Shown: positions 24,554 to 37,275 of the stretch, piece by piece
Layout of the letters: each line of letters opens with the position of its first letter
Numbering within the stretch: the first letter of the stretch is position 1
Virus genome (UHGV): UHGV-0212837
Length of the DNA: 39,035 nt
Source of the DNA: a virus
Strand: one strand, 5' to 3'
Notes under the pieces: generated by a model
What the model was told of the DNA's origin: nothing
Seen by the model: the letters and a program-made list of their open reading frames with translations, nothing else
Databases searched by the model: none
Made by a program: the position numbers and the translations under genes

Positions 24554-24814
24554 TTAACTGCTGTCTTTTTTATATATCTCTTTGAGCGTATCAAAGACAA
24601 TTTTCTTAACCATATCAGATTGTTGTTCTGCCATACGCTCTGCATCGTCAATGTAAACTGATGCAGAGCTTTGTTTAGCCAATGATTCTTCAATCGCTGC
24701 AATTATCTCTGAGTTCAGCGACCTGTTATTCATCTTCGCACGCTGCTTAATTTTCGCGTGGAGTTCATGCGGAAGTCTCAAGTGAAACTGCGCCTCGTCG
24801 TATTTACTGTACAT
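24554..24814 (-). CDS. mnt: Mnt-like ribbon-helix-helix repressor (Arc/MetJ family)
   Basis: Aligns along its length with recalled P22 Mnt (LNSEIIAAIEESL, DDAERMAEQQSDMVKKIVFDTLKEIYKK); start taken at internal ATG 24814; track ORF extends to 24847. Confidence 0.75.
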   Translation of the reverse strand: MYSKYDEAQFHLRLPHELHAKIKQRAKMNNRSLNSEIIAAIEESLAKQSSASVYIDDAERMAEQQSDMVKKIVFDTLKEIYKKDSS

Positions 24815-24935
24815 CCTTGATGCCTCACCAGTTGGGTGGAATGGCATCGTAACCTACTGGATAAATACTCAATAGTACCATTTCGGTATGCAATCACATC
24901 ATGGTTGCATCATATCATTCGTCTGGAGTAATGAA

Positions 24936-27242
24936 ATGTCAGATATCACCGCAAATGTTGTGGTAAGCATGCCTTCGCAACTCTTCACTATGGCGCGTTC
25001 TTTTAAAGCGGTTGCCAATGGCAAAATTTATATCGGAAAAATTGACACTGACCCGGTAAATCCAGAAAACCAGATCCAGGTTTATGTGGAGAACGAAGAC
25101 GGCTCTCACGTTCCTGTTTCGCAACCAATCATCATTAACGCTGCCGGATATCCGGTATATAACGGACAGATTGCCAAGTTCGTAACTGTGCAAGGTCATT
25201 CTATGGCTGTGTACGATGCATATGGGGCGCAGCAGTTCTATTTTCCGAATGTGCTGAAGTATGATCCTGATCAGTTACGGAAACAGGTGGAGCATAATCT
25301 TTTTAATATTTGGAAAGAGCTATCTAATAGCTATGGTATTAATCTAATAGGAACATTTGAGTCAGGATTTACAATTGACGACAGGAGACAGGCAGGGCTT
25401 TTTCTTAAAGATGGTAAAGTTTATACAAGGAAAGGATTAGATAATGTTATTGTCCCTCCGGGGAGTTACCCAGAACCTTCATTATGGGAGCCTGTTTCTT
25501 TTATAAAAGAAGAAACAATATATGTAGGAATAGAACCATTTAAGTTACATGAAAGTAATGATGGTGCAAAAAATGATGAAATTCTTGAAAGGCTTGCGAG
25601 ATATATTGAAACAAGAAGTGGGCCTGTGAGGGTAATTTTTCCAAAAGGAGATTTTTATGTTGGAAGCCAGTATCTTTCAGGTGCGACAGGATTTGGCGGG
25701 TCTTATATACCAAACCAGAAATGTACAGTAAGAAATTTCAATTATCCACTGCGGTATGAATTTAATGATAGCAATTTTATTTTCTCAGATGGATTGCGGG
25801 TTGGGTCATTTGATCCGGTAACTGGCCTCCCAATTAAAACAATTCAAACAAATTTTGACTATCGTGCAAATAGAGGTATTTTATTTGGGTTTAATGGCTG
25901 TCCAATTGTTTCCATCTCAGGAAGAGTTAATATTGATTTCAATGGAAAGAGTGTAATATTAGGCGGGGAGTTCGGGGATTCTGGATATCAATGTCCAGAA
26001 TATGGATTTTGGTTTATTGATCATAAGGTTTTGATATTTGATGCACATTATACAGCATATGACGGAGCAATGGATGCTATTTATTTAGCAGGATTGAATG
26101 GAGATGATTGTTATTCACGAGTTACTAATTTCTCTATTAACAAAATGGGGCGTTCAGCTTTTGTTGTTGCTGGCGGAGACAATATTTATATTAGTGGCGA
26201 CGCCTATAACTCCGGGCTTGGTAGTATATCAAGTTCACCTGGACATAACTTTGCCATAGAGTCAGAAGTACGCAAAATTTCAAATGTAGTACTTGAAGGA
26301 GTTACTGCAAATGAAGCAAAATTCTCTTCATTTAGCATCTATAGGACTCAATCGAATCCAGTTAATGACATTAAGGTGGTAAACTCATATCTTTCAAATT
26401 CTTTCAACATAACATGCAAATCAAATACACCTAATTTAAAATACATTGATTGCACTTTTAGAGGGTTGATTGGAGAGCACAGAAATGAGTTCTTTGATCA
26501 TTCAGTCGACTTAAGAGCTGCAAAACTGATAAGATGTAATCATTATGATACCAAGCCAGACGGTTCTTTAACGAACGCATCAAATGGCACCCATTTTGAT
26601 AGTTCTAAAATAATTAGATTAACATTCAGTGAATGTAATATCATATCATCCGGGTTCAAGCCTGGAAGAGGAACAATAGGTTCAATATATGAAGCTGTAA
26701 TAGATGGCCTGACTGTCACTGTTAACGGAGATATCACGTTTGCCGCAACAAATGGTATAAAAATACTTAATTTTGAAAATCCAGTAAAGATAGAAAATTT
26801 TGAATTAATAAATAGGACAATAGGTAACGGCACAGATTCGCAACGAGCATATATAGGTGTGTCTGGAATTGAAAATGCATCTATAAAAAATGCAGCAATA
26901 TCAGGGGTTGGGCAAGAGAAAGACACCATACTTTGGTTGTATCCATTAATAAATTCCGGGGGAAGGGCGGGTCGCCTTGTTGATAGGGATGCCAAATCTT
27001 CTGTAGGGGCACAACAATTCCTTTCTTTAGGGACGGATTCATATTTGAATGAATCGCAGAATGTATCAGGGTATCAAAGAATATTTTCTGTAACACAGTT
27101 GCCAAAAACTGGATATTGGGTTAGAGGAGATGTTTTATTTTTCAAAAATCCTTCGCCAGGTGGTCACATTGGTTTTGTATGCACATCTTCTGGAGAAGGA
27201 GAAGGTGCAATATTCAAAGCATTTGGGGCAATAAGTCCTTAG
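24936..27242 (+). CDS. Tailspike protein: P22 gp9-type head-binding domain (first ~110 aa) fused to a divergent AT-rich receptor-binding domain
   Basis: [11 protein letters not shown]...NVLKYDPDQ matches P22 gp9 N-terminus; remainder unrelated to recalled P22 gp9; start at ATG 24936 with GGAG SD. Confidence 0.9.
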
Positions 27243-27967: not shown

Positions 27968-29146
27968 ATGGCTATAAGCGACACAAAACTGCGTACTATT
28001 TATGGTAAACCATATTCTGGCCCACAAGAAGTGGCTGATGCCGATGGGCTCAGCGTACGAATTTCACCGAAGGGGGTCATCCAGTTCCAGTACCGCTATC
28101 GCTGGCATGGCAAGCCTAATCGACTTGGGCTTGGTCGATATCCATCCCTGTCTTTGAAGGATGCCAGACAGATCACTGCTGACTTGCGAAAGCTCTATTT
28201 CTCAGGAACGGATCCACGCACCTATTTTGAAGAGAAGGTGGAGAACTCCATGACGGTCGCCCAGTGTCTCGACTACTGGTTCGACAACTACGTCTCTACA
28301 ACTCTCAGAGAAAAGACCCAGGCACTTTACCGATCAACGGTTATGAAGCGCATGCATGACGCATTTCCTAATCGTCCGGCATCTTCTATCACGGTTAAGC
28401 AATGGGTTGACCTGCTTACCGAAGAAGAAAGAGATAATCCACGCCGAGCAAGGCAGGTGCTAAGTCAACTAAGATCAGCAATAAGTTGGTGCATGCGGCG
28501 TCAGTTGATAGATAGTTGCGCAATTATGAGCATCCAACCAAGGGACTTCGGCTCCCGTGCTGAGGTAGGGGAGCGGGTACTGTCGTATCACGAACTAGCT
28601 AAGATTTGGCTTGCTATTGAAAGAAGCCGTGCGTCTACGTCAAATAAGCTCCTTCATCAGATGCTTATGCTGTGGGGGGCGAGGCTCTCAGAGCTTAGGC
28701 TGGCAACAAAGACAGAATTTGACCTGCTGGACAACGTATGGACCGTACCGAAAGAGCATAGCAAGATGGGTAATGTTATCCGCCGTCCAATCTTCGAACA
28801 AATTAAGCCTTTTCTCGAAAAGGCCATGACAACGTACAATGATGTTCTTTTCCCTGGAGAAGACATAAACAAACCGATCAGCATCGCTGCAGCCAACCGA
28901 TTCGTAAATAGAATAAGGGGAGGGATGGACATAGGTTACTGGCGAACACATGATTTCAGAAGAACGCTTGTTACACGGCTGTCCGAGATGAATGTCGAGC
29001 CCCATGTTACTGAGCGAATGCTCGGTCATGAACTTGGCGGGATAATGTCCGTGTACAATAAACACGACTGGATAGAGGCTCAGCGCAAAGCGTATGAGCT
29101 TCACGCTGATAAATTGTTCTGGCACATCAGGAGCATTTCTGATTAA
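27968..29146 (+). CDS. int: Tyrosine integrase (P4-type N-terminal arm-binding domain)
   Basis: 392 aa; catalytic region with R...H..R...Y pattern (HDFRRT, GHELGG, SVYNKH); N-terminal domain typical of P4-like integrases. Confidence 0.9.
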   Translation: MAISDTKLRTIYGKPYSGPQEVADADGLSVRISPKGVIQFQYRYRWHGKPNRLGLGRYPSLSLKDARQITADLRKLYFSGTDPRTYFEEKVENSMTVAQCLDYWFDNYVSTTLREKTQALYRSTVMKRMHDAFPNRPASSITVKQWVDLLTEEERDNPRRARQVLSQLRSAISWCMRRQLIDSCAIMSIQPRDFGSRAEVGERVLSYHELAKIWLAIERSRASTSNKLLHQMLMLWGARLSELRLATKTEFDLLDNVWTVPKEHSKMGNVIRRPIFEQIKPFLEKAMTTYNDVLFPGEDINKPISIAAANRFVNRIRGGMDIGYWRTHDFRRTLVTRLSEMNVEPHVTERMLGHELGGIMSVYNKHDWIEAQRKAYELHADKLFWHIRSISD

Positions 29147-29318
29147 CGCCACCGTTAAGAATCCACCATTCAACAGCTTCACGAAGGTATGATTTGGGGT
29201 GGGTTCTGACTGGCTTCGGAAATCCGTGCCGTTTGGTATAGTTCCAGATTGTCTGACGTGATGAAACACCGAGCTTGTTCATCACTTCTTTCTCAGGAAT
29301 CAGGCTGGTATCGGTCAT
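29127..29318 (-). CDS. xis: AlpA-family excisionase / DNA-binding regulator
   Basis: 63 aa HTH resembling AlpA/Xis; GGAGA SD; 3' end overlaps int 3' end by 20 bp, convergent. Confidence 0.55.
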   Translation of the reverse strand: MTDTSLIPEKEVMNKLGVSSRQTIWNYTKRHGFPKPVRTHPKSYLREAVEWWILNGGVNQKCS

Positions 29319-29395
29319 CTTAATTCTCCAGGCAAAAAGAAACCGCCATATAGCGGCTCTATCAGATATGTACAGGCCTCATCGAGTGTGAGGCG

Positions 29396-29740
29396 TTAGT
29401 CCTTGCTTAGCTCGCTGATTCTTCTGTAAGTCTCTGGTGCTTTGTTTCCGTGTATCTTCATTTCAAACTTCAACAGAGCAACGAGGGAATCCCATTCGTT
29501 GAGGATTCCTTTGAATGCCGGAACGCGCTTTGCAACATTGTCGAATGAATCTCTGATTTCTGGAATCTGCTCAACAAGTGCAACGCATCGTCGGAAATCG
29601 GCTGCGTCATGTGGAGCGCCGAAGTGATGACCATAGATATTCTTTTTCAGTCCACATGCGATTGAGGCAAGAGTTGCGCTACTGATGCCGACATCGCCAG
29701 TCGATTGCCATTTCAAAACCTTCATAGCCAAATCTGACAT
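29396..29740 (-). CDS. Hypothetical protein (114 aa)
   Basis: Start taken at internal ATG 29740 (GGAGA SD); the longer track ORF would contain a terminator-like hairpin. Confidence 0.4.
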   Translation of the reverse strand: MSDLAMKVLKWQSTGDVGISSATLASIACGLKKNIYGHHFGAPHDAADFRRCVALVEQIPEIRDSFDNVAKRVPAFKGILNEWDSLVALLKFEMKIHGNKAPETYRRISELSKD

Positions 29741-29754
29741 TTCTTGTCTCCAAT

Positions 29755-29775
29755 AAAAAACCGCCATCAGGCGGC
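29755..29775 (-). terminator. Candidate weak terminator (GCCGCC-TGAT-GGCGG plus T6)
   Basis: 5-bp GC stem and U-run on the minus strand between two small genes. Confidence 0.35.
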
Positions 29776-29949
29776 ATGGTGTTCTTTCAGTTCTTCAATT
29801 CGAATATTGGTTACGTCTGCATGTGCTATCTGCGCCCATATCATCCAGTGGTCATAGCAGTCATTGATGTTCTCTGCTTCGATAACTCTGTTGAATGGTT
29901 CTCCATTCCATTCACCTGTGACTCGGAAGTGCATTAGTGATTTCTCCAA
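29767..29949 (-). CDS. Hypothetical protein (60 aa)
   Basis: ORF in early-left operon. Confidence 0.4.
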   Translation of the reverse strand: MEKSLMHFRVTGEWNGEPFNRVIEAENINDCYDHWMIWAQIAHADVTNIRIEELKEHHAA

Positions 29950-29969
29950 AAGATGCTTGAGTGCGCTTC

Positions 29970-30269
29970 TTATTCGATTCGCACACCTGGTATTTCGCCT
30001 TTTGATATTGCTAAGTCATAAATTTGCGCAGCACTATACCCATCTCGCATCCATGAATCTAATGCGCGAATAGCCTCGTTACGCTTTTTATCTTCTCTCT
30101 CATTTTTGATATCAACGAGGACATCAACGCAATTAAGGCAAATGTGGATTTTGTCCTTACATTCGATCATGGCGGCTTTACCATGATTTACTCCACACAG
30201 TGAGCATAAATCTTCAGGGTCTGGCTGGTATTTCTGTAACGTTAAAGGGTTGAATGTTGAACAGGACAT
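29970..30269 (-). CDS. Cys4 zinc-ribbon protein (99 aa)
   Basis: CSLCG...CLNC; third ATG has GGAG at proper spacing. Confidence 0.4.
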   Translation of the reverse strand: MSCSTFNPLTLQKYQPDPEDLCSLCGVNHGKAAMIECKDKIHICLNCVDVLVDIKNEREDKKRNEAIRALDSWMRDGYSAAQIYDLAISKGEIPGVRIE

Positions 30270-30375
30270 AATCATCTCCATAAAACAAAACTCGCCGTAG
30301 CGAGTTCAGATAAAAGAAATCCCCGCGAGTGCGAGGATTGTTATTCACCTTTGACGGCAAGTTGCAGGTTAGCCA

Positions 30376-30636
30376 TTACCGCACCTCCAGTCTCCATACC
30401 GACTGACCAATCCGGCTGGCATAGGTATCTTTGGATACTGCTCCGTCTTTAGCCAGCTCCATAAGAATTTTGCGCAAATCTGCCGAACGCCATTCTTCAT
30501 CAGGAAATTCCTTCTCCATTGCCAACCGCAGATTCCAGGTTGCTATCGTGAATGGATATTCCCCGCCGAGAGCTTTCTCTTGCAGGGCAGCACGGGAACG
30601 CATCACCTGCAAAACCTTCTCTTTTACATCCATCAT
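30376..30636 (-). CDS. Hypothetical protein (86 aa)
   Basis: AGGAGG SD; ATGA overlap with upstream gene. Confidence 0.45.
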   Translation of the reverse strand: MMDVKEKVLQVMRSRAALQEKALGGEYPFTIATWNLRLAMEKEFPDEEWRSADLRKILMELAKDGAVSKDTYASRIGQSVWRLEVR

Positions 30637-31277
30637 TTTACCTCCTGCGGCGGTTCCGGTAGCGGCATCCAGTGAGTTGCCTGCTCAATACCATTACCCG
30701 GCTTAATCGTTGCTTGTCCTCGCCGAAAGGTACTTCCGGTATAGCGTGCGGAGCATATTAGCGGCTCAACCAGATCACTATCGAAATTCACCGAAATAAG
30801 TACGTTCTGATTCTTTTTCGGCATTCGCTCACTACAGCTTATCCAACCATCCGGAATTACCGGAGAGTTGCCGGGTTCTTTAATGTGCAAGCGAGGCTCA
30901 CCATCTTTTGGCTCAGGCCACTGGCGCTCCATGTTGATCTTCAATTTATCTTCCATAGCAGCGGTAATTTCAGCATCGCTGATGCCAGCACGGCGCTGTG
31001 AATCCCACAACAGAAACTGCATATCAGCCCACTCGCTAAGATCGTCTGGTTCGGCTGCGGCTTCCAGTGCCTCTTTTGAGAGGTGTTTCAGTGGACCAAT
31101 GGGGCCAACGCAGCCAAATGTGGAGTCAGACCATTTGGCATGCTCGTGGCGAATCTGTTCGCGTTCCAGTGATGCCAGTGCAATTCGTGCCAGTTCCATT
31201 TGTTCGCCACGAGTAAGCCCGTTTTCAAGCGGATTTTTAATGAATAATTCGATACGTTCTTTGGTAATAGTGGTCAT
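30633..31277 (-). CDS. Hypothetical protein, MTTIT paralog 1 (214 aa)
   Basis: N-terminus MTTITKER...ELARIALA paralogous to 31473-31985. Confidence 0.5.
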   Translation of the reverse strand: MTTITKERIELFIKNPLENGLTRGEQMELARIALASLEREQIRHEHAKWSDSTFGCVGPIGPLKHLSKEALEAAAEPDDLSEWADMQFLLWDSQRRAGISDAEITAAMEDKLKINMERQWPEPKDGEPRLHIKEPGNSPVIPDGWISCSERMPKKNQNVLISVNFDSDLVEPLICSARYTGSTFRRGQATIKPGNGIEQATHWMPLPEPPQEVK

Positions 31278-31279
31278 AG

Positions 31280-31471
31280 CTATTTCACCTTAATCTCAAC
31301 ATTTCGCAGCTTTAGCTCTACTGGCAGGTCTGACTTTCCTGTTAATGCTAATGCGAGATTTTCTGGGGTAATGAGAGCAGTTATTGCTTTCCCCATTGCC
31401 AGACGAATAATTATTCGTATTTCGCGATCGTCACATGCTCCTGGTCGAACGATTGATATTTGTCCGTCCAT
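31280..31471 (-). CDS. Hypothetical protein (63 aa)
   Basis: ATG 31471 with AAGGAG SD one nt after the upstream stop. Confidence 0.35.
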   Translation of the reverse strand: MDGQISIVRPGACDDREIRIIIRLAMGKAITALITPENLALALTGKSDLPVELKLRNVEIKVK

Positions 31472-31472
31472 C

Positions 31473-31985
31473 TCACTCTCCTTTGATGCCAATGTTTACA
31501 GCCTGGCAAGCCTCTTTGAGCACCCAGTCAACAGCGTCTTTCCATGCTCCAGTTTCGACTGGCGGATTTTCACGCTTAACCTGTTCATAGAAGCGCACTG
31601 CTTTAATCAATCCTTCTGGTGTCAGTGGCACAGGCGGGGCAGTGAATAACGCCTGAATTTCATAGTTCGGTCTGTCGTTGCAATCCTCTTTTGTCGGTAC
31701 ATATTTCCAGTCACCAACCCACGGCTCCCCCTGTGAGTCCGTAATGCCTTTTTTCACGTAGCGATATCGCCACGCTATCGGCTCTGCTTCCAGCAATGCC
31801 AGCACAATTCGTGCCAGCTCACGCACTACTTCCGGGGGAGCGTAACGGTCATTCAGGTCATCCCACAGGCGTAGCATGTTATCGCTACCAGGGTGAACAT
31901 CCTCGTTAGTTCCGGCAAGCGCACTAATAACCTCATCGGCTGCCTCAATAATTTTCAGAGCTTGTTCTCTGGTAATAGTGGTCAT
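31473..31985 (-). CDS. Hypothetical protein, MTTIT paralog 2 (170 aa)
   Basis: Shares nucleotide-identical first 5 codons and an ELARI(V/A)LA motif with paralog 1. Confidence 0.5.
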   Translation of the reverse strand: MTTITREQALKIIEAADEVISALAGTNEDVHPGSDNMLRLWDDLNDRYAPPEVVRELARIVLALLEAEPIAWRYRYVKKGITDSQGEPWVGDWKYVPTKEDCNDRPNYEIQALFTAPPVPLTPEGLIKAVRFYEQVKRENPPVETGAWKDAVDWVLKEACQAVNIGIKGE

Positions 31986-32191
31986 TTGTTAACCCTCAAA
32001 ACTTTATGCCCGGGCGCAAAAGCACGCGTTTTGTCTTTGCTTATTCGCCAGCCATCATTACGTGCCTCTTTTGCACAGCCAGCCCATGACGTACCGATAT
32101 ACTCACCGAAGTCTGGCGTTTGATATTTACCATTTGTACACTGGCGACAATCACAGTAGAGATGCATGGTGTAACTTGCGGCAATAGCCAT
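31982..32191 (-). CDS. Cys-rich small protein (69 aa)
   Basis: YCDCRQC...GC motif; track ORF N-terminal extension conflicts with the upstream gene. Confidence 0.4.
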   Translation of the reverse strand: MAIAASYTMHLYCDCRQCTNGKYQTPDFGEYIGTSWAGCAKEARNDGWRISKDKTRAFAPGHKVLRVNK

Positions 32192-32192
32192 A

Positions 32193-32384
32193 TCAGTCTC
32201 CTTTAGTGCGCAGGTGGTTTTTCCAGCGGTTTTGCGCCGCGCTGCGCTTATCTTTGATTCCCTCTCTGGCAATTCCAGAATATAAGTACAACACCACACG
32301 GCGATTGCTAACTCTCAACCACTGGCTGGGATAGCAACGTCTGTATACACGGGAAATAAGCATCTTTGCTTTACGGTTTTTCAT
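32193..32384 (-). CDS. Small basic protein B (63 aa, MKNRKAK...)
   Basis: ORF in track; start ATG overlaps stop of protein A (ATGA). Confidence 0.45.
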   Translation of the reverse strand: MKNRKAKMLISRVYRRCYPSQWLRVSNRRVVLYLYSGIAREGIKDKRSAAQNRWKNHLRTKGD

Positions 32385-32557
32385 CTTACTGCGTACCCTT
32401 TCTTCCGCCTGTTCTGTGACGCTGTAGGCTTACGCTTTGCGGCAAAAGCCACCTGACCAAATGGATGGAGTACCGCTATCTTATGGTTGCTAATAACCAG
32501 CTCCACCACACGCACAGGTCGCTGTAAAAAAAGTCGTTTTGCCTTACGGTTTTTCAT
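32381..32557 (-). CDS. Small basic protein A (58 aa, MKNRKAK...), not in track
   Basis: Hand translation MKNRKAKRLFLQRPVRVVELVISNHKIAVLHPFGQVAFAAKRKPTASQNRRKKGYAVR; ATGA overlaps at both ends. Confidence 0.4.
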   Translation of the reverse strand: MKNRKAKRLFLQRPVRVVELVISNHKIAVLHPFGQVAFAAKRKPTASQNRRKKGYAVR

Positions 32558-32730
32558 CGCTTTGCTCTCCTGCGTTTCTTTGCTGCTCGTCGTGCCGCTG
32601 CAATACCGGTATGGCGGCGCTTTGGTGCCGGGATGATGTTGTCAGCCATCAGGACATGCGGCTTTGTAATTAGCGCAGAAGCCCAAAAACGAGTCGGATA
32701 CGGTAACAAGCCGATACATGCCACACGCAT
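32554..32730 (-). CDS. Small basic protein C (58 aa, Arg/Lys/Ala-rich C-terminus), not in track
   Basis: Hand translation MRVACIGLLPYPTRFWASALITKPHVLMADNIIPAPKRRHTGIAAARRAAKKRRRAKR; start overlaps upstream stop. Confidence 0.4.
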   Translation of the reverse strand: MRVACIGLLPYPTRFWASALITKPHVLMADNIIPAPKRRHTGIAAARRAAKKRRRAKR

Positions 32731-33209
32731 TACTCACCCTCTTTGATGCGAATGCCAGCGTCAGACATCATATGCAGATACTCACCTGCATCCTGAACCC
32801 ATTGACCTCCAACCCCGTAATAGCGATGCGTAATGATGTCGATAGTTACTAACGGGTCTTGTTCGATTAACTTCCGCAGAAACTCTTCCAGGTCACCAGT
32901 GCAGTGCTTGATGACAGGAGTTTTCCCAGGATGGCGAACAACAAGAAACTGATTTCCGACTTCACGGACTTCGTTGCTTTCCAGTTCTGCTATGCGCTTC
33001 TCTGCGGCAGTAATGATGCCCTCTAGGCGTCGATTTCTACTTTCGAGTGTTTTGACTTGCTCTTTATCGGCTTCCAGCGTCTCTACCAGCACAATCACTG
33101 CCTCTGGCGTTGCTAAATCCTGCCAGTTGTCTGATGTGTCGCAGACAGAGCGCAGCATAATTTCTTCTGCTGCCGCCGCACGTAGTGCCTGATAATCAAT
33201 TTCGCTCAC
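32730..33209 (-). CDS. Hypothetical coiled-coil protein (159 aa, GTG start)
   Basis: GTG at 33209 with AAGGAGG SD 6 nt upstream and GTGA overlap with upstream stop; track ORF is a longer N-terminal extension. Confidence 0.5.
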   Translation of the reverse strand: MSEIDYQALRAAAAEEIMLRSVCDTSDNWQDLATPEAVIVLVETLEADKEQVKTLESRNRRLEGIITAAEKRIAELESNEVREVGNQFLVVRHPGKTPVIKHCTGDLEEFLRKLIEQDPLVTIDIITHRYYGVGGQWVQDAGEYLHMMSDAGIRIKEGE

Positions 33210-33658
33210 TGGCTGCCTCCTTTGCGAAGTTGGGCGGCGCGATTGTTTGCCTGCTGGAGAACCATCTTCCAACCAACAACGCAATGCATATCAGATGAAC
33301 ACTGCTGATTGGAGAACTTGACCAACATTGTTTCAGCCAAGCCAGCCAAGCTATCAAGTTCGCTGGCCCGCACTTCAGCCAGGAAGGCGTCGGTGGCCGG
33401 GGTTTTGCAGGACATTTGAATTGCCTTCTCTGTGTATAAAACACCCGTTCGATTGGCGGTATACATGATGGTGTTTACAGCATCTTGATGTGCTGATTTC
33501 ACAGCCTCAACTTCAGCAGCCAGCGCCGCGCACTTGGCCTCCGCTTCAGCAAATTTACGCACCAGATATTCAGCGTTTGTTTCGTTAACCTTTAAATCTC
33601 GTGGTATGCATTTACCTTTCAGAAATCCATCCATCTCAATTAGTGACATTAGTTTCAT
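33206..33658 (-). CDS. Hypothetical protein (150 aa)
   Basis: ATG 33658 overlapping upstream stop (ATGA). Confidence 0.45.
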
Positions 33659-33837
33659 TTCTTCCCACTCCGCCACATCGCATTCAGATATTTGTTGTCA
33701 TTAACAGAACCTAAACTATTTCTCTTAAGCAATTCCTCTCTCGATGGCATTGGCTTTACGCGTTGGCGAATAATCATTTCTGCCGGAAGAATGCCGGGAT
33801 TGTATGCAAGTCCTCTCATTGTAAATTCCTCAGTCAT
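33655..33837 (-). CDS. Hypothetical small protein (60 aa)
   Basis: Internal ATG 33837; start uncertain. Confidence 0.35.
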
Positions 33838-34123
33838 TACTGATAGCGCCATAGCGTGAGCGGTAATTACGCAGGCGCGGGTCAATTTCAGGGAAGTGGG
33901 TATATGTGGCTTTGCGGAATGGTCGGATTGATGTCTGGTAAATTCGATCGCGTTCTTCTTTCTCTGCAAGCCATATACAGTGGCGAAATTCCTTTTCCTC
34001 TTTCGTTTCCTGCGGTAGCGACATTATTCGATCGTAGTTTTTTCTGAATTTATCCAGCACCTCCGATACGGAATTGCCGGAACAGCGGCGCGCGTCGTCC
34101 GCACCATACAGAGGCGCTGGCAT
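33830..34123 (-). CDS. Hypothetical protein (97 aa)
   Basis: ATG with AAGGAT SD; follows ssb. Confidence 0.4.
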
Positions 34124-34146: not shown

Positions 34147-34530
34147 TTAGAAGGGAATTGAATCGTCGTATTCAGGATGATTTTGATGATTGCTACTTTG
34201 CTGCTGTTGGCTGTTTCCTGAAGTTGCAAATCCAATCTTTGCATTCAGTAATTCAAGAGTGATTGATTGACCATTTTGCCCCTGATAAACATCAACCCTG
34301 ATGTTTTCTCCGGTAATTTCTACAATGCCACCTTCAACAAGAACACTACGGTAGTAATCCGCTTGCGCTCCCGGCTTGGCAAATACAACGGCGCTGTAGT
34401 TTGTCCATTCTTTCTTTTTTGTCTGGCGATCGTAATACTGAACGCCAGCACGGATGTTGAATCCGATATTTTCCCCGGCCTGAAACTCTCTTGCGGGCTT
34501 GTTTAGTCTTACAGTAATCGAATGTGCCAT
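34147..34530 (-). CDS. ssb: Single-stranded DNA-binding protein
   Basis: 127 aa from internal ATG 34530; acidic C-terminal tail ...DDSIPF; TAATG overlap with erf. Confidence 0.75.
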   Translation of the reverse strand: MAHSITVRLNKPAREFQAGENIGFNIRAGVQYYDRQTKKKEWTNYSAVVFAKPGAQADYYRSVLVEGGIVEITGENIRVDVYQGQNGQSITLELLNAKIGFATSGNSQQQQSSNHQNHPEYDDSIPF

Positions 34531-35135
34531 TAAGCAGCAGCTCCTTCTAATTCGTCTCGTCTGATGTTGTAAACGTCCTGCGCTTTGTGCTGCTCCGGTG
34601 TGCCTTCGAGCATCTTCCACGCTTTGGCGAACGCCTGTTTAAGCTCTTCCACGGTGTTTTTCTGCAATGCTGCGTCAGTGAATGCTTTTAGAACCTGTTC
34701 AGGTGTAGGTGATGGTTTTGATTGCTTTGCTGCTGCGTTCTGCTGATGTTTATGCTCGTCGGTATCTGCATCTTTCGCATCATCAATGCCGAACAAACCA
34801 TTGAGGCAATACTTGCGTGCATAAGAGCTTGTAGCTCCCGTAACTTGTGCAGAATCCATTCCTTTCTTGCTTTCTTCCTCTCGTGCAAGAGCGGTTGCTG
34901 TATGACTGTTTTCGCCATCAGTAATAGTTGCCGTTGCTTTCACGTAATACCGATCACCAATCAACACAACTTCATCGCTGATTGATAAAAACAGACCATT
35001 CAGTAACGGCTTAACGCCTTCAAGAATATCTTCGCAGCTTCTGTATTTATATTTGCCGAATGAGTTGTACTGATTCTTTGGCGCGTTCAGATTCTCCTGA
35101 ATAGCTGCCAGTCTTGCGTAAAATTCTTTGCTCAT
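34530..35135 (-). CDS. erf: Erf single-strand annealing recombinase (P22 Erf-like)
   Basis: MSKEFYARLAAIQENLNAPKNQYNSFGKYKYRSCEDILEG matches recalled Erf N-terminus; track start is an upstream TTG. Confidence 0.8.
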   Translation of the reverse strand: MSKEFYARLAAIQENLNAPKNQYNSFGKYKYRSCEDILEGVKPLLNGLFLSISDEVVLIGDRYYVKATATITDGENSHTATALAREEESKKGMDSAQVTGATSSYARKYCLNGLFGIDDAKDADTDEHKHQQNAAAKQSKPSPTPEQVLKAFTDAALQKNTVEELKQAFAKAWKMLEGTPEQHKAQDVYNIRRDELEGAAA

Positions 35136-35738: not shown

Positions 35739-36107
35739 TCAGGCGGCTTTGATAGTCATATCATCTGAATCAAATATTCCTGATGTATCGATATCGGTAA
35801 TTCTTATTCCTTCGCTACCATCCATTGGAGGCCATCCTTCCTGACCATTTCCATCATTCCAGTCGAACTCACACACAACACCACATGCATTTAAGTCGCT
35901 TGAAATTGCTATAAGCAGAGCATGTTGCGCCAGCATGATTAATACAGCATTTAATACAGAGCCGTGTTTATTGAGTCGGTATTCAGAGTCTGACCAGAAA
36001 TTATTAATCTGATGAAGTTTTTCCTCTGTCATTACGTCATGGTCGATTTCAATTTCTATTGATGCTTTCCAGTCGTAATCAATGATGTATTTTTTGATGT
36101 TTGACAT
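35739..36107 (-). CDS. Hypothetical protein (122 aa)
   Basis: ATG with GAGGAT SD immediately downstream of a terminator hairpin. Confidence 0.5.
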   Translation of the reverse strand: MSNIKKYIIDYDWKASIEIEIDHDVMTEEKLHQINNFWSDSEYRLNKHGSVLNAVLIMLAQHALLIAISSDLNACGVVCEFDWNDGNGQEGWPPMDGSEGIRITDIDTSGIFDSDDMTIKAA

Positions 36108-36760: not shown

Positions 36761-37087
36761 TCAAATAAGTGGTTTGCTGCCTAATTTCATTTTCTGGCGA
36801 CCAACACAAGTCACACCCATTTCACTGCGTGGCTTGCTGTACCATGTGCGCTGATTCTTGCGCTCAATACGCTGCAGGTTGCTTTCAATCTGTTCGTGGT
36901 ATTCAGCCAGCACCGTAAGGTCTATCGGATTCAGTGCGCTTTCTACTCGTGATTTCGGTTTGCGATTCAGCGAGAGAATAGGGCGGTTAACTGGTTTTGC
37001 GCTTACCCCAACCAACAGGGGATTTGCTGCTTTCCATTTAGCCTGTTTCTCTGAGCGACGTTCGCGGCGGCGTGTTTGTGCATCCAT
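36761..37087 (-). CDS. N: Antiterminator N
   Basis: 108 aa from internal ATG 37087, near-identical to recalled lambda N (MDAQTRRRERR...); AGGAGA SD. Confidence 0.9.
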   Translation of the reverse strand: MDAQTRRRERRSEKQAKWKAANPLLVGVSAKPVNRPILSLNRKPKSRVESALNPIDLTVLAEYHEQIESNLQRIERKNQRTWYSKPRSEMGVTCVGRQKMKLGSKPLI

Positions 37088-37244: not shown

Positions 37245-37275
37245 GCCCTTCTTCAGGGCTTAATTTTTAAGAGCA
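37245..37275 (-). promoter_or_regulatory. nutL (boxB GCCCUGAAGAAGGGC at 37245-37259; boxA-like UGCUCUUA at 37268-37275)
   Basis: boxB read on the minus strand matches the recalled lambda nutL boxB; boxA upstream at the expected spacing. Confidence 0.7.

Follow-up and report, generated by a model that had tools for sequence, protein, structure and literature searches.

A mosaic block of small accessory genes between ssb and xis in a probable P22-like phage genome

Gene layout

The analysed window, a viral genome of 39,035 nt (UHGV-0212837), contains 15 ORFs on the minus strand between its upstream flank, ssb (34147-34530), and its downstream flank, xis (29127-29318), and in our ORF reading these occupy positions 29396-34123. 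We number them 1 to 15 in the 5′ to 3′ direction of that strand, to which all features below belong. The original prediction of about 15 minus-strand ORFs running from ssb to xis with ATGA, TAATG or GTGA overlaps agrees with our count of 15 ORFs and seven overlapping junctions (five ATGA, one GTGA and one TAATG). In genes 1-12 stop and start codons overlap or nearly abut, the non-overlapping junctions of this coupled run being three spacers of 1-2 nt and one of 10 nt. Coupling ends after 30376, and the gaps before the last three genes, of 106, 35 and 26 nt, bear terminator-like hairpins. Every ORF has a PHROG match, with E-values from 1e-18 to 1e-67, which marks the set as conserved phage genes rather than ORFs open by chance.

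Genes with named relatives

None of the genes had been thought recognisable, yet all 15 belong to PHROG families and six are assignable to named lambda or P22 genes (abc2, orf56, eaE-like, ea22, orf55 and EaA-like); the similarity of a seventh ORF to P22 EaA is weak and partial. ORF 1 (34123-33830) is abc2, encoding anti-RecBCD protein 2, whose product matches Pfam PF11043 (Anti-RecBCD_p2) over its full length at 1.7e-62 and PDB 8b1t at 1.9e-53, and is 92% identical to P22 Abc2. ORF 2 (33819-33655) encodes a DUF2737 protein of 54 aa (PF10930, 5e-29) with 72% identity to P22 orf56. ORF 3 (33658-33206), joined to the gene upstream by an ATGA overlap, encodes an eaE-like mosaic protein of 150 aa (phrog_614, 1.9e-48) that is 37% identical to P22 EaE over 67 aa (E=5e-8); its head and tail (QLRKGG.Q) are common to homologs in two compared loci, L001 and L002. 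ORF 4 (33209-32730), with a GTG start in a GTGA overlap, is ea22, a lysis-lysogeny modulator (PMC7093339). Its 159 aa product is 59% identical overall to lambda Ea22, and the C-terminal domain (residues 78-156) shares 97% identity with the lambda structure that has been solved, PDB 8dsx (E=6e-47); the Pfam Ead_Ea22 model scores 20.4 bits, under its threshold of 27. ORF 14 (29934-29767, phrog_676) is the homolog of lambda orf55 (lambdap35), with 98% identity over 55 aa.

Two mosaic genes with a common head

ORFs 9 (31985-31473) and 11 (31277-30633) lie exactly where a pair of genes starting MTTIT had been placed. ORF 9 encodes MTTIT170 (phrog_660, 9e-52; AlphaFold2 pLDDT 63), a three-module mosaic protein with a helical head (1-66), a beta domain (72-114) and a helical tail (124-165); an identical protein (P0001) is found in public data. 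ORF 11 encodes MTTIT214, a shortened version of EaA from P22 (60% identical across 194 aa, E=1e-70) composed of a head, DUF550 (PF04447, 6.6e-42, residues 42-137) and DUF551 (PF04448, 2.6e-21, residues 144-211). Its ExxE and ExAD motifs align with those of MazZ (PDB 7ody), and to judge from its sequence this EaA-like enzyme probably hydrolyses dATP/dGTP.

The conserved 5′ end of the MTTIT170 gene (ATGACCACTATTACC..., 31964-31985) recurs at 31256-31277 as a 22-nt direct repeat, for which we estimate a chance expectation of about 5e-5 in 4.9 kb. The starts had been called nucleotide-identical, which is true of the first 16 nt; over the whole repeat 21 of 22 positions agree. The ELARI(V/A)LA motif reported for both ORFs is indeed common to them, encoded in a 44-nt repeat of junction-helix DNA (ELARIVLALLEAEP, 31777-31820 and 31153-31196, 77% identity) that marks the head/body boundary in alignment A1. 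The label of paralogs does not survive: BLASTP aligns 8 residues only (E=1.8), and different bodies stand behind an exchangeable head. MTTIT170 is matched by 591 representative clusters, its modules matching independently, and many of these matches cover residues 1-72, 66-166 or 108-170 only. Heads are also swapped between genomes: P0085 joins a head of the MTTIT214 type to the MTTIT170 body, in P0059 the head and beta domain of MTTIT170 are followed by a DUF551 tail, and Kapi1 has a third head version on DUF550-DUF551. Among 78 head-bearing proteins DUF551 occurs in 17, DUF550 in five and Lar in one. Because the same heads are found on DUF551, DUF550 and Lar bodies elsewhere, module shuffling rather than gene duplication is indicated; by these comparisons the MTTIT genes are two different mosaic proteins with a common exchangeable N-terminal head, not whole-gene paralogs.

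Small ORFs without a named relative

ORF 5 (32730-32554), which begins at the TAATG junction, encodes a 58-aa protein of pI 12 with an Arg/Lys-rich C-terminal tail (phrog_13831, 1.3e-41). ORFs 6 (32557-32381; 58 aa, phrog_1380, 6.5e-23) and 7 (32384-32193; 63 aa, phrog_1380, 3e-33) both encode basic proteins starting MKNRKAK. ORF 8 (32191-31982) encodes a Cys/His-rich protein of 69 aa (phrog_926, 1.4e-36) whose C13, C15, C18, C38 and H62 are retained in four homologs; Pfam and PDB searches gave no match to it. For ORF 10 (31471-31280; 63 aa, phrog_1222, 1.9e-39) homologs occur in Kapi1 as well as in prophages of E. coli, and ORF 12 (30636-30376; 86 aa, phrog_2814, 8.6e-51), joined to the gene upstream by an ATGA overlap, ends the tightly coupled run.

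ORF 13 (30269-29970, phrog_3680) encodes a 99-aa protein with a four-cysteine zinc ribbon followed by a long helix. The cysteines (C22, C25, C44, C47) are invariant in 20 homologs, of which 17 match zf-C4_ClpX, all below threshold; in the PDB the family profile retrieves nothing but zinc-binding domains of ClpX (E=0.026-0.5), and fold searches with the protein gave nothing significant. This zinc protein with sub-threshold similarity to the ClpX zinc finger is one of two leads from the block. ORF 15 (29740-29396), adjoining xis, encodes a 114-aa prophage protein (phrog_1229, 1.9e-50) from a family of 63 protein clusters, with source names from Enterobacteriaceae only, whose profile gave nothing significant in PDB and Pfam searches.

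Hairpins and a deletion scar

Four terminator-like hairpins within the chain, and a 12-codon scar of a deleted ASCH-domain gene (30376-30341, MANLQLAVKGE*), were absent from the original prediction. In L001 and L002 the ASCH gene comes after the same upstream gene, and its opening 11 codons are identical to the scar, the body of the gene being removed here. Our hairpin search found two tandem hairpins at 30288-30339, and the segment 30271-30344 matches lambda 29288-29361, between ea8.5 and orf55, at 97% identity. A third hairpin (29760-29775) lies over the orf55 stop codon and is a copy, at 80% identity, of the fourth (29340-29359), which precedes xis and was recovered by hairpin search and repeat comparison; the P22 site homologous to the third is annotated as a terminator. 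Outside the block, a lambda-type N antiterminator (36761-37087, translation MDAQTRRRERR...) lies at the position where homologous phages annotate N. Upstream of N is a candidate nutL boxB hairpin (GCCCTGAAGAAGGGC, 37245-37259), which we take to be like that of lambda. A sequence scan of the chain found no promoter-like site.

Mosaicism and comparison with other phages

No phage record or E. coli genome that we searched covers 80% of the region, the best covering 51%; at the level of sequence the block is a new shuffle of known gene cassettes, and none of the records searched has it entire. Similarity to relatives tends to stop where a gene or a domain does: 62 of 124 BLAST segment ends fall 30 nt or less from a gene boundary, compared with 23% of positions. 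The enrichment is real but uncertain in size, since loci that are related have breakpoints in common and the ends are not independent. These boundaries bear short islands of highly conserved DNA, namely at gene 5′ ends, at the ELARIALASLEAEP junction helix, at the start and end of DUF551, and at C-terminal '...GIRIK(E)GE*' tails, which include the ribosome-binding site of the next gene. These conserved joints could instead reflect protein-level constraint and not a role in recombination. A cassette of the block is also found in the nin region of another prophage and on plasmids.

The comparison with other lambdoid phages that had been suggested gave P22 or lambda relatives for all six named genes. 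The P22 ea region (eaA-eaI, orf56, abc2) belongs to the same phage group, follows the same strand logic and lies likewise between erf/abc2 and xis. Common to it and the block are abc2 (92%), orf56 (72%) and two further genes, one like eaE and one like EaA, the latter with the same head, whereas eaC, eaG, eaI, eaD, eaF and abc1 are missing here, the EaA-like protein has 214 aa against 317 in P22, lacking the EaA beta domain and central segment, and eight ORFs have no P22 counterpart. The lambda exo-xis region (orf60a, orf63, orf61, ea22, ea8.5, orf55) has the same place in the operon and shares ea22 (C-terminal domain, 97% to PDB 8dsx), orf55 (98%) and the hairpin-containing spacer (lambda 29288-29361, 97%). 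Unlike lambda, the block lacks ea8.5 and the conserved orf60a-orf63-orf61 cassette, and around orf55 it carries two genes, encoding 99 aa and 114 aa, as insertions.

Mosaic Ea22 variants with a constant N-terminal part and interchangeable C-terminal domains, including DUF551 (PMC10834534), show the same architectural logic as the MTTIT/EaA-type proteins; the MTTIT head has no detectable relation to the Ea22 N-terminus (hhalign probability 0.2%). The MazZ/DUF550 dATP-dGTP pyrophosphohydrolases of Z-genome phages belong to the same PF04447 family as MTTIT214, in which DUF550 is, unlike in MazZ, fused to DUF551 and an EaA-type head, and the lambdoid phage that carries it shows no trace of a 2-aminoadenine pathway.

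Interpretation of the block

We consider it highly probable that the phage is a P22-like (Lederbergvirus) temperate phage of E. coli and that this block forms the non-essential, promoter-distal part of its early-left (PL) operon. The genome carries N, cI, kil, cIII, erf and int, and the genes of the block share a strand, with the recombination module (erf-ssb-abc2) on one side and xis-int on the other. In P22-like phages this operon has about 20 genes, mostly of unknown function (PMC8022706), and the corresponding exo-xis region has been described (PMC3824215, PMC8614690). The block would be an instance of the mosaic accessory region ("ea / exo-xis") that is well known from lambdoid phages. 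By analogy, it would be transcribed leftward from PL, with N antitermination taking RNA polymerase through the internal terminators, and translated as a coupled chain. Recombination at conserved joints may have swapped cassettes and protein modules while leaving transcription and coupling intact; this would explain the identical starts of the MTTIT genes as two forms of a single exchangeable N-terminal head set in front of different bodies. The products would be a grab-bag of host-interaction accessory proteins, in which Abc2 would bind RecC and redirect RecBCD, and Ea22 would bias the decision toward lysogeny.

The original prediction of an anti-defence or host-modulation operon thus holds in part, in that this is a variable accessory block with abc2 and ea22, and fails in its premise that no gene was recognisable. 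The ORFs do not all fall into well-characterised families with roles unrelated to host interaction. A stronger version, a dedicated anti-defence island in which most of the small proteins each block a specific bacterial immune system, is possible but in our judgement the less likely account. Like published accessory regions that are enriched in counter-defence genes (bioRxiv 10.1101/2023.04.06.535777), the block is hypervariable between conserved flanks; its abc2 product is directed at RecBCD, one protein with the MTTIT170 head carries a Lar restriction-alleviation domain, and the DUF550 nucleotide pyrophosphohydrolase could change nucleotide pools. Yet abc2 is the sole ORF matching a known anti-defence protein, only for Abc2 does homology indicate an anti-defence function, and the only neighbours with experimental work behind them, ea22 and further exo-xis genes (PMC7093339, PMC3824215), act on the choice between lysis and lysogeny and on host physiology, not on immunity. 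The proposed remote homology searches, ORF by ORF, named the six genes above, while PADLOC, Pfam, NCBIfam and PDB gave nothing significant for the eight remaining ORFs.

That the smallest ORFs, notably the two of 58 aa (32381-32730), are conserved non-coding or linker DNA, open only by chance, seems rather improbable. They are extremely basic (pI 12), their stretch was left unannotated by PGAP in two plasmid copies, and their DNA is too conserved for a codon-position pattern. Both, however, are intact in all four loci compared, lie in frame within the chain with ATGA or TAATG coupling, have strong PHROG matches and are annotated by PGAP in other genomes (for ORF 5, in L005 and L010). ORF 7, the paralog of ORF 6, moreover holds its frame through an in-frame 3-nt indel and heavy divergence, keeping a W.W.R.SNRR core where the central DNA has diverged.

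Functions that protect the lysogen by prophage defence or superinfection exclusion, rather than acting at infection, are a still more doubtful explanation. Defence genes are frequent in prophage accessory regions, and hairpins bracket the 114-aa gene adjoining xis in the manner of a moron, but only 20 nt separate the hairpin from its start codon, the chain has no promoter-like site, every gene points the same way as PL, a promoter kept repressed in the lysogen, and PADLOC defence models match none of the 10 ORFs of unknown function even at E<=0.1. Least probable of all is a true tandem duplication of the MTTIT genes with later divergence: the two lie 708 nt apart on one strand with near-identical 5′ ends and a common motif, but this reading is already contradicted at the sequence level by the 8-residue alignment, by wholly unlike bodies (DUF550 and DUF551 against beta domain and helical tail), by head regions that differ by 28 residues in length, and by the occurrence, in other genomes, of each head with the opposite body as well as with many more.

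A real paralog pair, absent from the original prediction, is formed by ORFs 6 and 7 (32557-32381 and 32384-32193), with 36% identity over 55 aa (E=1e-4) and a 32-nt repeat of 81% identity at their 5′ ends; this tandem pair of very basic mini-proteins is the other lead from the block.

Gene content and layout

The DNA comes from a temperate, P22-like (Lederbergvirus) phage of E. coli. Enterobacteria phage IME10 matches the structural half at 96-97% identity; the early region gives piecewise matches to HK544, Sf101 and mEp234 and carries int, xis, erf, kil, cIII, an Ea10 homolog, a lambda-type N, a cI-type repressor, cro and cII. The block studied here is bounded on its far flank by xis (29127-29318) and on the other by an SSB-like gene (phrog_44, 34147-34530, minus strand), which adjoins erf (34530-35135) in the recombination module and holds the place that abc1 has in P22. 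A near-identical homolog of lambda Ea10 (35739-36107, minus strand) co-occurs with this second SSB-like gene.

The original prediction of about 15 coupled minus-strand ORFs between xis and ssb was borne out: we read 15, with the overlaps present. Starts were picked from ribosome-binding-site context together with homology; the GTG start of ea22, for example, reproduces the MSEI..QALR N-terminus of lambda. Twelve genes are tightly packed, from abc2 (34123) to an 86-aa ORF ending at 30376, with five ATGA, one GTGA and one TAATG junctions, three spacers of 1-2 nt and one of 10 nt. Beyond 30376 the packing ends in a 106-nt gap with two tandem terminator-like hairpins; a third such hairpin spans the stop codon of a 55-aa gene (orf55) and a fourth precedes xis.

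All 15 ORFs match PHROG families (E 1e-18 to 1e-67) and have homologs annotated by PGAP in E. coli prophages; they are therefore real, conserved phage genes. NCBIfam gave nothing useful for any of them, and when the 15 sequences were searched against the PDB, only Abc2 and Ea22 gave a match. None had at first seemed recognizable, yet six map to named lambda or P22 genes. The nine uncharacterized ones are three basic mini-proteins, ORFs of 69, 63, 86, 99 and 114 aa, and the 170-aa ORF of the MTTIT pair treated below; all of these except the last have no lambda/P22 counterpart and no match in Pfam, NCBIfam, PADLOC or PDB. PADLOC defence-protein models run against ten unknown ORFs gave no match at E<=0.1, and no block peptide was found in the supplementary files of PMC12373910.

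Genes with lambda or P22 counterparts

The abc2 gene (34123-33830, minus strand) matches Pfam PF11043 (Anti-RecBCD_p2; 1.7e-62, 208 bits against a cut-off of 25) over residues 1-97 of 97, and PDB 8b1t (1.9e-53), which is Abc2 solved in complex with RecBCD. Its product is 92% identical to P22 Abc2 and by homology should bind RecBCD, contacting RecC and modifying the activity of the enzyme. Next come a DUF2737 gene (33819-33655, minus strand), identified by Pfam and P22 matches as a homolog of P22 orf56, and an eaE-like mosaic gene (33658-33206, minus strand) with PHROG and P22 matches.

The ea22 gene (33209-32730, minus strand) matches lambda Ea22 and PDB 8dsx. Its C-terminal domain (residues 78-156) is 97% identical to the lambda structure 8dsx (E=6e-47). 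The N-terminal/coiled-coil signature Ead_Ea22 (PF13935) scores 20.4 bits against a cut-off of 27, and the BLASTP alignment to lambda Ea22 starts at residue 1 (59% identity, 2e-70). Lambda Ea22 is a tetramer with a pro-lysogenic phenotype (PMC7093339, PMC10834534), and by homology the protein here would likewise favour lysogeny. Nearer xis, a homolog of lambda orf55 (29934-29767, minus strand) is 98% identical to it.

Two EaA-type mosaics

Two minus-strand ORFs, of 170 aa (31473-31985) and 214 aa (31277-30633), share an MTTIT start and had been proposed as a paralog pair with nucleotide-identical starts. Both lie at the coordinates proposed, and their common ELARI(V/A)LA motif falls inside a 44-nt repeat of 77% identity. 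The starts are nearly but not fully identical (21 of 22 nt), and paralogy does not hold: BLASTP aligns the first 8 residues only (E=1.8), and we rejected it, as the two have in common just the first 7 residues and a 14-residue junction helix.

The 214-aa protein contains an EaA head, DUF550 (PF04447; residues 42-137, 142 bits against a cut-off of 23, 6.6e-42) and DUF551 (PF04448; residues 144-211, 76.7 bits against a cut-off of 22, 2.6e-21), the order found in P22 EaA. It aligns to EaA with 60% identity over 194 positions (E=1e-70) and in a second segment over DUF551, but with 214 rather than 317 residues it lacks both the central segment of EaA and the beta domain that follows the EaA head; from its sequence we regard it as a shortened EaA. 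Its DUF550 retains the acidic metal-binding motifs of MazG-type enzymes: KEALE and EWAD (ExxE/ExAD) align with EEIGE and EVAD of MazZ (PDB 7ody), at a weak pairwise E=0.57. DUF550 enzymes of Z-genome phages hydrolyse dATP/dGTP (PMC12884076), and the domain here is a predicted MazZ-like dATP/dGTP pyrophosphohydrolase, which would yield the monophosphate.

Alignment of homologs of the 170-aa protein shows a variable head of about 40-65 residues, the conserved helix ELARIALASLEAEP at its end, and then an unrelated body. Among public homologous proteins, P0085 joins the 214-aa protein's head to the body of the 170-aa one, P0059 has the head and beta domain of the latter followed by a DUF551 tail, and phage Kapi1 bears a third head type on DUF550-DUF551. 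Heads and bodies evidently recombine. A search of 1.84 billion representative proteins with the 170-aa protein returned 591 clusters, many matching residues 1-72 alone (85-96% identity, within proteins of 80-397 aa) and many others residues 66-166 alone or 108-170 alone; it is therefore built of three modules, each shuffled on its own. Its AlphaFold2 model, of low confidence (pLDDT 63), has a helical head, a beta domain and a helical hairpin, and agrees with this three-module reading; compared with viral structures, the model gave nothing significant.

Among lambda and P22 proteins, the 170-aa protein matches only EaA, weakly and over EaA residues 28-78 (E=0.002). In P22 EaA a single protein bears both the enzyme domains and the beta-domain type. 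Here these are divided between two genes, which look like different mosaics derived from the EaA type rather than duplicates. Kinship of the MTTIT heads with the N-terminus of Ea22 was rejected (local hhalign probability 0.2%), so a 17-nt DNA resemblance between them is ascribed to chance or convergence.

DUF551 occurs in 17 of 78 head-sharing proteins, DUF550 in 5 and a Lar restriction-alleviation domain in 1. It is conceivable, and in our view rather unlikely, that the head ending in the conserved helix is a docking or oligomerization module and that EaA-type proteins are polymorphic effectors, with one adaptor, interchangeable payloads and a common host target. Among the payloads could be the nucleotide pyrophosphohydrolase, DUF551 and an anti-restriction domain resembling Lar. 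Such a system would resemble polymorphic toxins, but serve phage takeover or counter-defence.

Conserved joints and shared cassettes

Comparison with other lambdoid phages, which the original prediction had called for, recovered shared pieces but the whole set in no record searched. Coverage of the 4.7-kb region stays below 80% in every phage record and every complete E. coli genome (best 51%), while parts of it match 3878 of 5426 complete E. coli genomes. When the region was compared by local BLASTN with 13 related loci, 62 of the 124 segment ends, which are not independent of one another, fell within 30 nt of a gene boundary, against 23% expected by position.

Short islands are 90-98% conserved almost everywhere, P22, lambda and plasmids included. 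They comprise the first codons of DUF551 (30816-30872, NSPVIPDGWISCSERMP), the end of DUF551 with the start of the next gene (30629-30678), the joint between the eaE end and the ea22 start (33165-33239), and the hairpin spacer at 30271-30344, matched by lambda 29288-29361 at 97% identity. Many block proteins end in ...GIRIK(E)GE or ...IGIKGE, and these codons hold the Shine-Dalgarno sequence of the next gene. We infer that the conserved joints would serve as recombination sites at which cassettes or modules are swapped, with transcription and translational coupling preserved. Such exchange is what the classical modular view of lambdoid phages describes for their evolution. The block is a fresh mosaic of a well-known region type and adds no new principle; its value is as a clean example of how conserved joints may permit swaps of cassettes, and even of protein modules, with transcription and coupling intact.

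The 69-aa, 170-aa and 63-aa genes recur as a cassette in the nin region of a prophage of E. coli MS 198-1 (locus L013, 2500-3600). This copy matches window 31255-32586 at 87% identity, with replication gene P on one side and NinX/terminase on the other, so cassettes are common to the early-left and the early-right accessory regions. Several block cassettes, this one included, also occur at 89-95% identity on plasmids of E. coli that measure about 90-108 kb, in 307-367 plasmid places; examples are loci L004 and L006 (p20-20P1 and pEc1077-100). These plasmids are presumably phage-plasmids.

Like the exo-xis region of lambda, the block lies in the PL operon, with the recombination genes on one side and xis on the other. 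The lambda exo-xis cassette orf60a-orf63-orf61 has no BLASTP match in the block at E<=1.

Basic mini-proteins and the xis-proximal end

Three mini-proteins of pI 11.4-12 stand in tandem and are probably translationally coupled (32193-32730, minus strand). The first (32554-32730) has an arginine-rich C-terminal tail, AARRAAKKRRRAKR. The other two (32557-32381 and 32384-32193) both start MKNRKAK, belong to phrog_1380 and are 36% identical over 55 of their 58 and 63 residues (E=1e-4); to judge from this alignment they are true paralogs, a pair that the original prediction had missed. In this family the 5' and 3' ends are conserved and the core has diverged with the frame kept. A codon-position test on the two 58-aa ORFs showed no pattern, their divergence being too low. 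That the mini-proteins bind nucleic acid is our guess.

The 99-aa protein (29970-30269, minus strand) is zinc-finger-like, with an invariant CxxC-18-CxxC: C22, C25, C44 and C47 are present in all of 20 homologs. Its family is small, and all members with a named source are enterobacterial. The spacing is identical to that of the E. coli ClpX zinc finger, and the family profile aligns without gaps to chains of the ClpX N-terminal zinc-binding domain, the only PDB matches it has, at sub-threshold E=0.026-0.5. Against zf-C4_ClpX (PF06689) the protein scores 16 bits, below the cut-off of 27; the model matches 17 of the 20 family members, below threshold (best E=1.3e-3). Fold searches with the protein did not recover ClpX. 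Homology to the ClpX zinc finger is plausible but unproven; conceivably, though this is rather unlikely, the protein mimics the ClpX N-domain in free-standing form and titrates ClpX adaptors or substrates.

The 114-aa xis-proximal gene (29396-29740, minus strand) occurs abundantly among prophages of E. coli and has no known relative; its family profile gave nothing significant against PDB or Pfam. Kinship with DUF550, raised by matches to the public proteins P0320, P0354 and P0368, was rejected, P0320 and P0368 being deletion chimeras rather than homologs. In these two a DUF550 domain is fused to the C-terminus of the 114-aa protein, joined where both parents read GIS(D/S)A, and they are deletion products of this region that show its decay in prophages. 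Terminator-like hairpins at 29333-29357 and 29751-29775, which are 80%-identical copies of each other, flank the 114-aa gene. In lambda, orf55 comes directly before xis, whereas here the 114-aa gene lies between them; relative to lambda it looks like an insertion that brought a duplicated terminator.

A 12-codon remnant of an ASCH-domain gene, MANLQLAVKGE* (30376-30341, minus strand), is TAATG-coupled to the 86-aa gene. The gene is intact at the equivalent place in other prophages (locus L001, 3294-3578). We read this remnant, with the DUF550::114-aa chimeras in public data, as visible decay.

Expression and function

All block genes are co-oriented with N (36761-37087). Upstream are a hairpin, GCCCTGAAGAAGGGC, at 37259-37245, which we take to be the lambda nutL boxB, and a promoter-like site at 37343-37315; promoter-like sites inside the chain were not found. 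Together these features point to a delayed-early PL transcript as the most likely source of block expression, with N antitermination reading through the four internal hairpins.

Most early-left genes of P22-like phages have no known function (PMC8022706), and such regions are treated as accessory regions rich in counter-defence genes (bioRxiv 10.1101/2023.04.06.535777). The suggestion of an anti-defence or host-modulation operon stands in so far as this is an accessory, host-interaction region with an anti-RecBCD gene, but only abc2 supports anti-defence, which is reasonable as a prior for the block. What the ea and exo-xis genes of lambdoid phages do has long been poorly understood, and E. 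coli genomes carry such genes extremely often. The block offers a few testable candidates: the protein with the ClpX-like finger, the pair of basic mini-proteins, the 114-aa gene beside xis and the exchangeable head.

Other features of the window

Rfam at gathering threshold identified no RNA family anywhere in the window. An Arc/Mnt-like ribbon-helix-helix ORF (24554-24847, minus strand) lies just upstream of the 784-aa tailspike gene (24888-27242, plus strand). A low-GC stretch (36-39% GC, 25-28 kb) falls mostly inside the C-terminal, receptor-binding part of the tailspike gene, which suggests that the specificity domain was acquired horizontally.
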